From Escherichia coli (GTDB lineage Bacteria; Pseudomonadota; Gammaproteobacteria; Enterobacterales; Enterobacteriaceae): a stretch of 64,000 nt of DNA. Made by a program: the position numbers and the translations under genes. This document shows positions 1,556-63,764 of the stretch, in pieces. The stretch is taken from the NCBI RefSeq assembly GCF_030013205.1, contig NZ_CP122648.1. One strand, written 5' to 3'. The notes beneath the pieces are model-generated. The model made no database searches and had not been told where the DNA came from. It saw nothing but the letters and a program-made list of their open reading frames with translations. The first letter of the stretch is position 1. Each line of letters opens with the position of its first letter.

Positions 1556-2809
1556 TTAGTGACTTTCAGCCCAGGCTCTTTCTATCTCTTCTGCCAGAAT
1601 CTTCACTCCCGCCTCAATTTTCTCCGGCTCCGGCACGTAGTTCATGCGCATACATTGATGTGTATGTGGCCACGGTTTATCCAGCCCTGGGAAGAAGTTG
1701 TGCCCCGGCACCATCAGCACGCCCCGTGCTTTCAGGCGCTGGTAGAGCTGCTCGGTCGTAATTGGCAAATCCTTAAACCATAACCAGAGGAAAATGGCTC
1801 CTTCCGGTTTATGAATCAGGCAGCGATCTTCCGGTAAATAGCGGCGAATGATAGCGATAGTTTCCTGAACACGCTGGTAGTAAAACGGTTTGATGACTGT
1901 TTCAGACAGGCGCAGCAGATCGTTACGCTTAATCATTTCACACATCATCGCCGGACCAATACCGCCAGGTGCCAGGCTGATAATGCCGTTCATATTGGTG
2001 ATGGCGGTGATGATTTTTTCATTGGCGATGATAATGCCGCAGCGGGAGCCTGGTAGCCCCAGCTTGGAAAGACTCATGCACAGTACGATATTCGGATTCC
2101 ACAGCGGGCGCGCTTCGCTGAAGATGATACCCGGGAACGGGACGCCATAAGCGTTATCAATCACCAGCGGAATGCCGTGTTGATTCGCCAGCGCGTCAAG
2201 CTTCAGCAACTCTTCGTCAGTAATCACATTGCCTGTTGGATTCGTCGGCCGGGAGACGCAAATCATCCCGGTTTCTTCGCCAATATGCAGATGCTCAAAA
2301 TCGACGTGGTATTTAAACTGGCCTTCCGGCAGTAGTTCAATATTCGGACGCGCAGAGACAAACAGATCTTCTTCCAGTCCGGCGTCAGCGTAGCCAATGT
2401 ATTCCGGTGCCAGCGGAAACAGCACTTTTTTGACCCGACCATCGGCACGGCGTCCGGCGAACAGATTAAATAAGTAGAAAAACGCGCTCTGGCTGCCGTT
2501 TGTTAGTGCAATATTCTGTGGTTCGATATCCCAGCCCAACTTCTCGCGCAGCATTCCGGCAAGCAGTGTGAGTAGCTCCGTTTTCCCCTGTGGACCGTCG
2601 TAATTGCACAGTGCATCAGTCGCTTTGCCACTTTCCAGCATGTCGGTCAGTAGCGTCTGGAAGTAGTCCTGCATTTCCGGGATCTGCGCTGGATTACCGC
2701 CGCCGAGCATAATCGCGCCAGGCGTGCGTAAACCGTCGTTCAGATCTTCCATCAGCAGCGTAATGCCGGAGTGGCGGGTAAATTTGTCACCAAAAAGGGA
2801 GAATGTCAT
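1556..2809 (-). CDS. avtA: Valine-pyruvate aminotransferase
   Basis: ORF-track 1556..2914 trimmed to MTFSLFGDKF (417 aa); recognised AvtA; PLP aminotransferase motifs. Confidence 0.92.
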   Translation of the reverse strand: MTFSLFGDKFTRHSGITLLMEDLNDGLRTPGAIMLGGGNPAQIPEMQDYFQTLLTDMLESGKATDALCNYDGPQGKTELLTLLAGMLREKLGWDIEPQNIALTNGSQSAFFYLFNLFAGRRADGRVKKVLFPLAPEYIGYADAGLEEDLFVSARPNIELLPEGQFKYHVDFEHLHIGEETGMICVSRPTNPTGNVITDEELLKLDALANQHGIPLVIDNAYGVPFPGIIFSEARPLWNPNIVLCMSLSKLGLPGSRCGIIIANEKIITAITNMNGIISLAPGGIGPAMMCEMIKRNDLLRLSETVIKPFYYQRVQETIAIIRRYLPEDRCLIHKPEGAIFLWLWFKDLPITTEQLYQRLKARGVLMVPGHNFFPGLDKPWPHTHQCMRMNYVPEPEKIEAGVKILAEEIERAWAESH

Positions 2810-2986
2810 AGCGGGATATCTGTCGAACTCTGTAGCAAGGAAGGTAACAATAACGCTACATTTGCTGGGGTGCAAATCGCTCTGTTGAAGAGGGAGCGGT
2901 GCTTTATCCTGCAACGCTGATTAGAGCTGACATTTTATCCTGGTTGGCGGCTTCCCGAGGTACTGACGAACGGGAAGCCGGAAAAG

Positions 2987-5017
2987 TCACTGTTGCCCAG
3001 CCCAGATGACCAGCACTTTATCGTCGCCATGCTCACGAACAAAGCCGTAGCCCTGCTTCATCGAAAGTGTCGTTTGTTTGCCCTCGCCAATTGCGGGATG
3101 GCGGGCGCGGAACTGGCTGATTTTCTGCCAGTGCGCGACGCTGGCGGCAGATTTACCGCTAACATCCTGCCAGTTCATATCCGAACGCGTACCTTGCAGC
3201 GGATCCGAACCGGTGGGGCCGAACGGACGCGAGGATTCATCACCATAAAAGATTTGTACCGCGCCTGGCGCTAATAATAATAACTCTGCTGCTTTGTCGC
3301 CCCCTTCACGGAACAGGCGGGTATCATGCGACGAGAGGTAGCTCAACACGTTGAAATCCTGCAATTTCTCCGCCATTTGCTGCCAGGTCGTATCCATCTG
3401 CGCCAGACAATCGACTGCTTTAGCCGCCTGCTCCTGATAATCGAAATTGATCATCGCATCGAAGCCGTGGCGATAGTAGTCACTTTGCATCACGCCGTGG
3501 CCCCAGGCTTCACCGGTCATCCAGAAAGGTTTGTCATCTAACGCTTTATCGGGGTTCGCTTTTTTCCATTCGCGAAGCGCGGCGCTGGCTTCGGTTTTCA
3601 GTTGCTGCCAGGCGGGCAACTCAACATGTTTGGCGGTGTCGACCCGAAAACCATCAATCCCATAGTCGCGGACCCACTGACTTAACCAGTGGGTTAAGTA
3701 ATCGCGAGGGGTAAAGCCGTCGATGACTTTAGCGTGGGTATCCGTTTTGTTTTTATAGAACACCGGCAGACCAGAAGCGGTCGTTGATTCGGTTTTGATA
3801 TCCGGCAAAAAGGCCAGCGACATAGTGAGATCGTCAAATCCAGGATTGTCGTAATCGCCGATATCGGTTCTGATCCAGTTTTTTCCCCACCATTTATCCC
3901 AGCCTGTTTTGTCGCTGAAATTAATGTAATCGTTAAAGCTATGCCAGGTTTGCCCGGCGGCAGGTTTCCAGTCACTCCAGCGTTCACCCAGCGTTTTTTT
4001 CAGCTCGTCACCAGAAAGATATAACGCGCCAAACTGATACTCCTGCATATCCGCCAGCGTGGCATAGCCGGTGTGGTTCATCACGACATCAAAGAGAATA
4101 CGAATACCGCGCTGATGCGCGCTATCAACCAGCGTCCGTAGATCGGCTTCACTGCCCATATTGGCATCAAGATTCGTCCAGTCCTGTGTGTAATAACCGT
4201 GGTAGGCATAATGCGGGAAATCACCTTTTGTACCGCCGCCGACCCAGCCGTGAATTTGCTCAAATGGGGCGCTTATCCATAAAGCATTAACGCCCAACTG
4301 CTGGAGGTAATCCAGTTTGTTGGTCAGGCCGCGTAAATCGCCGCCGTGAAAAGTGCCAATTTCTGCCATACCGTCTTTATGACGTCCGTAACTCTGGTCA
4401 TTACTGGGATCGCCGTTTTCGAAACGATCTGTCAGCACAAAGTAAACTGTGGCGTTATGCCAGTCAAAAGGGGCAGGGGCGTCAGTTTCTGCCCGTTCCA
4501 GCAGGAGTAAACCGTTGCTGGTGGCAGCGGGTTGTAACGTTATTTGACCGTTCTTCACTATCGCAATTTGCTGGCTGTAATAATCCCGTACGGCGGCTCC
4601 TTCCGGGAAAGTGGCGCTGACATCCAGTGTGAGCGGTAATCCATCCCATTTCGGGCATTCACGGACCAGGCTTGCTACCGGTTCGACGGCGTTCTGGATG
4701 GAAATCATCAATGTTGGTGTACCGGAGCGGGTGTCTAGTTGCAGCGTATATTCGCCGTCCCTGAACAATCGCCATTGAGGCGGCGTGTTGCTACAAGGTT
4801 GCAGGGAAAGCATCTGATTGAGTTTTATCGCATCCGCAGGCTGCCAGCACTGTTGGTCAAAATTTAGCGTTAGTGGACGCGTACCTTTGGGCAACTGTGC
4901 GTGGCTGACAAATGTTCCCGTCCCCTGTTCGCTAAAGGCGGGAAACCCCGGAGAAGTCCAGCTGGCGGCAACGGCGAAGCCAGGAAGGAGCGTCAGAAAA
5001 CAGGCGGCGAGTTTCAT
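2987..5017 (-). CDS. malS: Periplasmic alpha-amylase
   Basis: 676 aa with signal peptide MKLAACFLTLLPGFAVAA; glycoside hydrolase family 13 motifs; recognised MalS. Confidence 0.95.
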   Translation of the reverse strand: MKLAACFLTLLPGFAVAASWTSPGFPAFSEQGTGTFVSHAQLPKGTRPLTLNFDQQCWQPADAIKLNQMLSLQPCSNTPPQWRLFRDGEYTLQLDTRSGTPTLMISIQNAVEPVASLVRECPKWDGLPLTLDVSATFPEGAAVRDYYSQQIAIVKNGQITLQPAATSNGLLLLERAETDAPAPFDWHNATVYFVLTDRFENGDPSNDQSYGRHKDGMAEIGTFHGGDLRGLTNKLDYLQQLGVNALWISAPFEQIHGWVGGGTKGDFPHYAYHGYYTQDWTNLDANMGSEADLRTLVDSAHQRGIRILFDVVMNHTGYATLADMQEYQFGALYLSGDELKKTLGERWSDWKPAAGQTWHSFNDYINFSDKTGWDKWWGKNWIRTDIGDYDNPGFDDLTMSLAFLPDIKTESTTASGLPVFYKNKTDTHAKVIDGFTPRDYLTHWLSQWVRDYGIDGFRVDTAKHVELPAWQQLKTEASAALREWKKANPDKALDDKPFWMTGEAWGHGVMQSDYYRHGFDAMINFDYQEQAAKAVDCLAQMDTTWQQMAEKLQDFNVLSYLSSHDTRLFREGGDKAAELLLLAPGAVQIFYGDESSRPFGPTGSDPLQGTRSDMNWQDVSGKSAASVAHWQKISQFRARHPAIGEGKQTTLSMKQGYGFVREHGDDKVLVIWAGQQ

Positions 5018-60312: not shown

Positions 60313-61992
<1,680 letters not shown>

Positions 61993-62245
61993 TTATAGGG
62001 CTTTTCTTTAAGGGTAGTCATTCGCTCCGCCTGGTGGGCGACAAACCGTGCGGTGGATCACGTTTATTAACTTGTCAAAAAATATAACGCACTAATATCA
62101 ATGGAATTTATAAAAATACGGATTTCGTGTTGTTTTTCATTTTCAGAACATTCAATCCTGCTCTCGCCGCAATCATGATATGCCATTCCTGATCTGGGTA
62201 ATAGGCACAGGCTATCTTATTGATAGTTTATATTCATGTAATTGA

Positions 62246-62259
62246 TTGATTCCTATCAA
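62246..62259 (+). promoter_or_regulatory. Candidate FNR box TTGAT-TCCT-ATCAA in the yhjA promoter
   Basis: Perfect FNR half-sites with 4-bp spacer about 110 bp upstream of the yhjA start; yhjA is reported as FNR/OxyR-activated. Confidence 0.45.
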
Positions 62260-62366
62260 AAAGCGTATTTCCCTGTTTTTTATGATGGCTTTGTCTCGCA
62301 GAGACGTTTGCAGCATTCTGGAAAATTTTCTGGGTCACAATAACTCACCACCGTGAGGGAAGAATA

Positions 62367-63764
62367 ATGAAAATGGTCTCACGTATTACCGCGATCGGCC
62401 TGGCTGGCGTCGCGATTTGCTATTTAGGGTTATCTGGTTATGTGTGGTACCACGATAATAAACGCAGTAAACAGGCTGATGTTCAGGCATCTGCTGTCAG
62501 TGAAAATAATAAGGTTTTAGGCTTTCTCCGCGAAAAAGGATGCGACTATTGCCACACGCCTTCGGCAGAATTACCCGCCTATTATTATATTCCTGGCGCG
62601 AAACAGTTGATGGATTACGACATTAAGCTTGGATATAAATCTTTTAACCTCGAGGCCGTGCGTGCGGCTCTGCTGGCTGATAAACCCGTTTCGCAAAGCG
62701 ATCTGAATAAGATTGAATGGGTGATGCAGTATGAAACCATGCCACCAACGCGTTATACCGCGCTACACTGGGCGGGTAAGGTGAGTGATGAAGAGCGGGC
62801 GGAAATACTCGCCTGGATTGCAAAACAGCGCGCGGAATATTACGCCAGCAATGACACTGCACCGGATCATCGTAATGAACCGGTGCAGCCCATCCCGCAA
62901 AAACTGCCTACCGATGCGCAAAAAGTGGCGTTGGGCTTTGCGCTGTATCACGATCCCCGTTTATCGGCGGATAGCACCATTTCATGCGCTCATTGCCATG
63001 CGTTGAATGCGGGGGGCGTCGATGGCAGAAAAACATCGATTGGTGTTGGTGGCGCAGTGGGGCCGATTAACGCGCCGACGGTATTTAACTCAGTATTTAA
63101 CGTTGAGCAGTTCTGGGATGGTCGTGCGGCAACATTGCAGGATCAGGCTGGTGGACCGCCGTTGAATCCGATTGAAATGGCGTCGAAATCCTGGGACGAA
63201 ATTATTTCTAAGCTGGAAAAAGATCCGCAGCTTAAAGCGCAGTTCCTCGAAGTCTATCCGCAAGGTTTCAGTGGCGAAAATATTACTGATGCCATTGCTG
63301 AATTTGAGAAAACATTAATTACGCCGGATTCCCCATTTGATAAATGGTTGCGTGGAGATGAGAATGCGCTGACGGCACAACAGAAAAAAGGCTATCAATT
63401 ATTTAAAGATAATAAATGTGCAACTTGTCATGGTGGTATTATTCTCGGCGGACGTTCCTTCGAACCGTTGGGGCTGAAAAAAGACTTTAACTTTGGTGAA
63501 ATTACGGCGGCGGATATTGGTCGTATGAATGTTACTAAAGAAGAGCGCGATAAATTGCGTCAGAAAGTACCCGGTTTACGTAACGTTGCACTAACGGCAC
63601 CGTACTTCCATCGCGGTGATGTGCCGACGCTGGACGGGGCGGTGAAACTGATGTTGCGCTATCAGGTAGGCAAAGAGCTGCCGCAGGAGGATGTGGATGA
63701 TATCGTAGCTTTCCTGCACAGTCTGAACGGGGTTTACACGCCGTATATGCAGGATAAACAATAA
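62367..63764 (+). CDS. yhjA: Di-/tri-heme cytochrome c peroxidase YhjA
   Basis: 465 aa; heme-binding CxxCH motifs (CDYCH, CAHCH, CATCH). Confidence 0.93.
   Translation: MKMVSRITAIGLAGVAICYLGLSGYVWYHDNKRSKQADVQASAVSENNKVLGFLREKGCDYCHTPSAELPAYYYIPGAKQLMDYDIKLGYKSFNLEAVRAALLADKPVSQSDLNKIEWVMQYETMPPTRYTALHWAGKVSDEERAEILAWIAKQRAEYYASNDTAPDHRNEPVQPIPQKLPTDAQKVALGFALYHDPRLSADSTISCAHCHALNAGGVDGRKTSIGVGGAVGPINAPTVFNSVFNVEQFWDGRAATLQDQAGGPPLNPIEMASKSWDEIISKLEKDPQLKAQFLEVYPQGFSGENITDAIAEFEKTLITPDSPFDKWLRGDENALTAQQKKGYQLFKDNKCATCHGGIILGGRSFEPLGLKKDFNFGEITAADIGRMNVTKEERDKLRQKVPGLRNVALTAPYFHRGDVPTLDGAVKLMLRYQVGKELPQEDVDDIVAFLHSLNGVYTPYMQDKQ

Follow-up and report, generated by a model that had tools for sequence, protein, structure and literature searches.

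The FNR box upstream of the Escherichia coli cytochrome c peroxidase gene ccp (yhjA) and its conserved promoter context

The 14-bp sequence TTGATTCCTATCAA, read on the + strand at positions 62246-62259 (centre 62252.5) of the 64-kb E. coli stretch analysed here (the window), is very probably the FNR operator of the ccp (yhjA) promoter, where it would serve as a class II activator site. Its half-sites, TTGAT and ATCAA, form a palindrome, and it is the single exact match to TTGAT-N4-ATCAA in the window, so that the perfect consensus claimed for it in the initial annotation of this DNA is borne out. The site and its regulation are already known, and confirming them adds no new biology. Two points go slightly beyond the reports that we consulted: the strict spacing of an OxyR site, the FNR box and the -10 hexamer across genera, and the contrast between the function of this box and its unoccupied state in genome-wide ChIP.

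The box between treF and ccp

The 3' end of the window corresponds to the treF - ccp (yhjA) - gadA region of E. coli, and RefSeq labels the genes that flank the box 'treF: alpha,alpha-trehalase' and 'ccp: cytochrome c peroxidase'. The ccp open reading frame (62367-63764, + strand) encodes a tri-haem, membrane-anchored cytochrome c peroxidase of 465 residues, in which Pfam recognizes the Haem_bd, CCP_MauG (6e-57) and Cytochrom_C domains. The RefSeq label and the CCP_MauG match uphold the earlier identification of the downstream gene as yhjA. The divergent neighbor of ccp is treF, which encodes the cytoplasmic trehalase (60313-61962, - strand; open reading frame and RefSeq annotation), and the two genes share an intergenic region of 404 bp with a G+C content of 36-41%. 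A 551-bp stretch over this region is present in 5422 of 5426 complete E. coli genomes, with an identity of 100% in strain CFSAN018748 and of 98.4% in K-12 MG1655. The strain of the window is not K-12 and has a few substitutions in the flanks, and nothing of substance distinguishes the window from the K-12 yhjA (ccp) promoter: the locus and the 14-mer are the same, and the OxyR site, FNR box and -10 hexamer are identical. The end of the box lies 107 bp, and its centre 114.5 bp, from the ccp ATG (62367), in agreement with the original estimate of roughly 110 bp.

By itself, the motif is only weak evidence, being mildly unexpected in 64 kb. Shuffled versions of the window contain 0.10 exact matches on average, with at least one match in 10 of 100 shuffles, and when up to one mismatch to the FNR consensus is allowed, the window holds 5 matches against 2.98 expected, which is no enrichment. 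The weight of the FNR assignment therefore comes from the context and conservation of the box rather than from the motif count. We also scored the window with a weight matrix built from the 63 ChIP-seq-bound FNR sites in Table S6 of Myers et al. 2013 (PMC3688515). The box reaches 14.9 bits, the best score in the window (the runner-up scores 13.4), and would rank 39th among the 63 bound sites, which range from 11.9 to 21.3 bits. On this matrix the half-sites are perfect, and the spacer, TCCT, is an ordinary one rather than the preferred one.

Layout of the ccp promoter

The probable -10 element of ccp is the hexamer TATGAT at 62281-62286 (+ strand), whose first base lies 28.5 bp 3' of the centre of the FNR box. 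The -35 position (62258-62263) reads AAAAAG, with one of six matches to TTGACA, and a consensus scan found no stand-alone sigma-70 promoter on the + strand of the intergenic region. The sole sigma-70-like promoter that the scan returned in this region, ATGACT-18-TATAAT (62021-61992, - strand; 10 of 12 matches), points to treF. If the -10 hexamer of ccp occupies positions -12 to -7 (or -13 to -8), transcription would start at 62293-62294 on the + strand, 7-8 nt past the hexamer, which would place the centre of the FNR box at about -40.5/-41.5 and give a 5' UTR of about 73 nt.

This layout supports the assignment of ccp as an activator-dependent class II promoter, with a geometry deduced from the -10 hexamer. 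The box is the 14-bp TTGAT-N4-ATCAA inverted repeat expected of a class II FNR promoter, and in Myers et al. 2013 (PMC3688515) the FNR site lies at -41.5 +/- 4 in 19 of the 23 FNR-activated promoters with a known start. The class II position that the initial annotation had considered thus gains support from the conserved TATGAT, from which the centre of about -40.5/-41.5 is derived. Known class II FNR promoters with sites at -40.5/-41.5 (narG, nirB, dmsA, yfiD and focA-pflB) resemble ccp in that the box overlaps the (at ccp, predicted) -35 position, the -35 element is weak or absent, and the -10 hexamer lies about 29 bp from the box centre. They differ from ccp in two respects. Those promoters fire on FNR alone or together with NarL or NarP, whereas ccp is described as also needing OxyR, and the ccp site is unoccupied in ChIP-seq in anaerobic glucose medium.

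A second activator site adjoins the FNR box. At 62201-62237 (+ strand), 8 bp 5' of the box, lies an OxyR-type four-tetrad site, ATAG-N7-CTAT-N7-ATAG-N7-TCAT, which reads ATAG-GCACAGG-CTAT-CTTATTG-ATAG-TTTATAT-TCAT. The first three tetrads are exact; the fourth is TCAT here and CCAT in Citrobacter. The site thus has the four ATAG/CTAT-type tetrads with 7-bp spacers of the OxyR pattern (ATAGnTnnnAnCTAT-N7-ATAGnTnnnAnCTAT). The three-tetrad core, ATAG-N7-CTAT-N7-ATAG, occurs exactly and only once in the window, and 0.09 matches are expected at up to one mismatch. Relative to the predicted ccp start, the site would span about -92 to -56. The order of the cassette is therefore OxyR site, 8 bp, FNR box, 21 bp and -10 hexamer. 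The OxyR-controlled promoters of katG, ahpC, oxyS and dps share with ccp the four-tetrad ATAG/CTAT site with 7-bp spacers, placed just 5' of the core promoter. In classical OxyR promoters, the OxyR site abuts the -35 element. The ccp promoter departs from this arrangement in that an FNR dimer would be interposed and the proximal end of the OxyR site would lie at about -56.

The region around the box holds several further elements. An inverted repeat, GTCTC-GCA-GAGAC (62293-62305, + strand), lies at the predicted 5' end of the ccp mRNA. Among 24 distinct orthologous ccp promoters, 15 carry a hairpin of at least four Watson-Crick pairs that starts 5-9 nt past the -10 hexamer, against 3.1 +/- 1.6 in shuffles, and the same test at other offsets finds 3-8 of the 24. 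The stems vary among genera (GTCT/AGAC, GTCC/GGAC, GGCCAA/TTGGCC and GTCGCG/CGCGAC), and a strict count of in-register covariation is not above controls. One possible role of the repeat is to stabilize the mRNA as a hairpin at its 5' end; another is that of an operator. A second hairpin, CTCAC-cacc-GTGAG (62344-62357, + strand), overlaps the ccp ribosome-binding site GAGGG with its 3' arm; it appears both in the predicted fold of the UTR and in a scan for terminator-like structures, and across Escherichia, Citrobacter and Pluralibacter its stem is conserved and its loop is variable. The fold of the whole ccp 5' UTR is not unusually stable (z = -0.73), and an Rfam search of 61900-62500 returned no family at E <= 1. 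On the - strand, a weak match to the IHF core consensus, AATCAATCAATTA (consensus WATCAANNNNTTR; 62239-62251), overlaps the left FNR half-site. The window contains 4 such matches against 2.2 expected, which is not significant alone, and this one falls within an IHF ChIP-chip interval of Myers et al. 2013 (PMC3688515).

Conservation of the cassette across the Enterobacterales

Orthologs were collected by a scan for the Ccp protein with one genome per species, which yielded 41 loci, and we applied the FNR matrix to the 350 bp 5' of each ccp ortholog and took the best match. A strong FNR box (12-18 bits) precedes ccp in Escherichia, including E. albertii, in many Citrobacter, in Pluralibacter and Trabulsiella and at one of the Entomohabitans copies, as well as in Hafnia, Enterobacillus, Providencia and Yersinia. 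The distance from box to ccp ATG is 86-121 bp in most of these loci; the outliers are one Providencia locus (226 bp) and Yersinia (about 128 bp, corrected for a protein match whose first residue is 11). The whole cassette, in which 8 bp separate the OxyR site from the FNR box and the -10 hexamer follows, recurs in Escherichia, Citrobacter, Pluralibacter, Trabulsiella, Hafnia, Enterobacillus, Providencia and Yersinia. Among the 38 ccp promoters scored (the window included), 34 keep the OxyR-FNR gap at exactly 8 bp, from Escherichia to Providencia and Yersinia similis. The first base of the -10 hexamer falls at +28.5 to +30.5 from the FNR centre in nearly all promoters scored, and almost all orthologs have a TAnnAT or CAnnAT hexamer at the -10 offset or 1-2 bp further on. 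The cassette is absent before ccp in the non-enterobacterial Saezia sanguinis and before the second Entomohabitans copy. Buttiauxella has a degenerate box (TTGATAGCCCGCAA, 5.5 bits) that still lies 8 bp from an OxyR-like site. As judged from these alignments, the cassette is held intact across several Enterobacterales families.

The pattern of conservation within the cassette is also informative. In an alignment of 15 ccp promoter sequences with a mean column identity of 51%, no change is seen in the TTGA and CAA of the box, in the OxyR tetrads, or at A2, A5 and T6 of the -10 hexamer. The FNR spacer varies widely among the orthologs (TCCT, TCTT, ACTT, AATT, TAAC, GAAT, AAAA, ACCC, GGTG, AGTG, CTGT and AAGG). 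Invariant half-sites around a varying spacer are the signature of selection on the half-sites that the protein contacts. With half-sites, position and -10 offset all kept across genera, ccp shows the phylogenetic footprint of a class II FNR promoter. Among the E. coli strains aligned, the FNR box is identical and the neighboring bases vary, and a 34-bp query centred on the box matched 5391 of 5426 complete E. coli genomes, where a match needs a shared exact word of 28 bases.

Two E. coli strains carry insertion sequences at this promoter. In AR_0118 (NZ_CP020048.1), an IS1A, which runs from about position 181 of the locus sequence, lies 6 bp 3' of the FNR box and before the -10 hexamer, at about window position 62266, and this insertion should uncouple ccp from FNR and OxyR in that strain. 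In fS54a (NZ_CM176577.1), an IS5-like ISKpn26, at 2056-3270 of the locus sequence, sits inside the FNR box itself at the equivalent of window positions 62253-62256; the junction reads TTGATTCCTAT-IS-CTATCAA, with a 4-bp CTAT duplication, and the half-sites are about 1.2 kb apart.

Regulation, occupancy and alternative readings

The motifs, their uniqueness, their spacing and their conservation are observations of this analysis, and the dependence of ccp on FNR and OxyR, like binding in vivo, is taken from the literature. The K-12 yhjA (ccp) promoter was reportedly shown to be governed by FNR plus OxyR in work by Partridge, Poole and Green (Microbiology 2007, 153:1499). Later papers place yhjA under the double control of FNR and OxyR (PMC10301912, citing Partridge 2007) and state that FNR activates it under anaerobiosis and that OxyR activates it (PMC4207228, citing Partridge 2007). 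Reviews from the Imlay laboratory (including PMC8115020) relate that OxyR induces Ccp under hypoxia and that H2O2 serves as a respiratory terminal acceptor via Ccp. In Table S12 of Myers et al. 2013 (PMC3688515), the aerobic/anaerobic ratio of yhjA is 0.50, that is, an approximately 2-fold rise under anaerobic conditions in glucose minimal medium, the direction of the ratio being fixed by the entries for cyo, sdh, nar and dms in that table. The anaerobic induction of yhjA mentioned in the initial annotation is thus on record, with the qualification that FNR alone is described as insufficient at ccp and that OxyR is also required.

The ChIP evidence for FNR, which the same annotation had proposed as a check, divides. 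FNR ChIP-qPCR was positive for yhjA and treF (Lemmens 2009, PMC2690998), in a paper that likewise cites Partridge 2007 on the control of yhjA. The genome-wide data of Myers et al. 2013 (PMC3688515) list the same 14-mer in Table S6, as its reverse complement TTGATAGGAATCAA and under yhjA/treF (PatSer 14.16), as a predicted site that lacks an FNR peak in ChIP-seq and is overlapped by ChIP-chip enrichment of H-NS and IHF. This no-peak result comes from ChIP-seq and ChIP-chip in anaerobic glucose minimal medium, and the anaerobic K-12 intervals over the region are 3661953-3667384 for H-NS and 3667035-3667586 for IHF. The same study lists yhjA neither among its FNR peaks for the hns/stpA double deletion strain nor among the operons whose expression differs between the wild type and an fnr deletion, the cultures having been grown without H2O2. 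In such cultures OxyR would be reduced and inactive. A promoter that depends on both regulators should then show hardly any activity. Grainger 2007, a ChIP-chip study, does not mention yhjA in its main text, and the Federowicz 2014 supplements (ChIP-exo) have no yhjA or b3518 entry.

Three other readings of the box deserve consideration, which together hold only a small part of the probability. The strongest of them, itself very improbable, takes the box as a silent FNR motif, hidden at all times under H-NS and IHF in the AT-rich treF-ccp-gad region, with OxyR alone driving ccp. The ccp site is indeed among the nucleoid-masked FNR sites of Myers et al. 2013 (PMC3688515) that are called silent, with no peak and with H-NS and IHF overlap. 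The low G+C content of the intergenic region (36-41%), the IHF core match over the left FNR half-site and the chance rate of an exact match (about 0.1 per window) are all compatible with such a role. Most of those silent sites, however, lie within genes and are without evidence of function, whereas the ccp site lies in a promoter, has a predicted class II geometry, is conserved across genera and comes with independent evidence of FNR control. A permanently idle motif also fits poorly with half-sites that do not change across several Enterobacterales families even as spacer and flanks diverge, with the fixed distance of the box to the OxyR site and to the -10 hexamer, and with a ccp promoter that, without the box, has no -35. 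FNR has moreover been seen at yhjA/treF by ChIP-qPCR (PMC2690998), the literature states FNR dependence, and the cultures that gave no peak were free of H2O2, with OxyR inactive.

It is highly improbable that FNR instead acts through the box on the divergent treF, alone or besides ccp, and activates or represses it from upstream. The box does lie within the 404 bp that the two genes share; treF is a high-confidence FNR target in the DISTILLER predictions, and the ChIP-qPCR amplicon gave a positive signal (Lemmens 2009, PMC2690998), but ChIP-qPCR cannot resolve two genes that share one site. An O2-dependent change in treF is on record as well, although only in the hns/stpA deletion background (Table S11 of Myers et al. 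2013, PMC3688515). The distances speak against a role at treF: about 290 bp separate the box centre from the treF ATG, and about 267 bp separate it from the start estimated for the treF promoter-like site, a few bases past its -10, a distance far beyond the class I positions of -61.5 to about -92.5. In other genera, furthermore, the cassette accompanies ccp and lies at a fixed distance from the ccp ATG. We rejected treF as the target because its only promoter-like site lies about 267 bp away from the box.

FNR and CRP sites are told apart by a T or a G in the half-site. Binding of the inverted repeat by CRP or YeiL, which belong to the CRP/FNR family as well, has a nearly negligible probability, for although CRP and FNR share the 5-4-5 (or 5-6-5) palindrome and the third E. 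coli member is poorly characterized, both half-sites here carry TTGA where CRP requires GTGA, the box scores well on a matrix built solely from FNR-bound sites, and the literature names FNR. The CRP reading was rejected on the half-sites, which have T instead of G at the discriminating position and so do not match TGTGA/TCACA.

With the box read as the FNR operator of ccp, a mechanism can be proposed. In anoxia, a [4Fe-4S] FNR dimer would bind TTGAT-N4-ATCAA at about -40.5/-41.5, take the place of the missing -35 element, and contact and recruit sigma-70 RNA polymerase to the -10 hexamer TATGAT. OxyR, bound directly upstream at about -92 to -56 with the fixed 8-bp gap, would provide the second signal. 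The ccp promoter would then work as an AND gate for the absence of oxygen (FNR active) and the presence of hydrogen peroxide (OxyR oxidized). Such a gate fits the role of the enzyme, which is respiration on H2O2 as electron acceptor when O2 is absent. At class II promoters, the alpha C-terminal domain of the polymerase is located just upstream of the activator. Cooperation between FNR and OxyR would most likely proceed through this domain and/or through relief of H-NS/IHF occlusion; here, as with the exact start and the polymerase contacts, we infer the details from the layout described above. A more specific proposal, possible though doubtful, is that oxidized OxyR removes H-NS and IHF from the masked box and in this way licenses the binding of FNR, and that the conserved hairpin at the predicted +1 may stabilize the transcript. 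Licensing by OxyR would explain why ChIP-seq of anoxic, peroxide-free cultures gave no peak at a box whose half-sites are perfect.

The box belongs to the switch that restricts the cytochrome c peroxidase of E. coli to conditions in which oxygen is absent and hydrogen peroxide is present. Hydrogen peroxide is thereby made usable as a respiratory electron acceptor at oxic/anoxic interfaces, for example at the gut epithelium. The ccp site is also a clear example of an FNR box that functions and yet was scored as unoccupied in genome-wide ChIP, and it illustrates that occupancy can hinge on a second signal.
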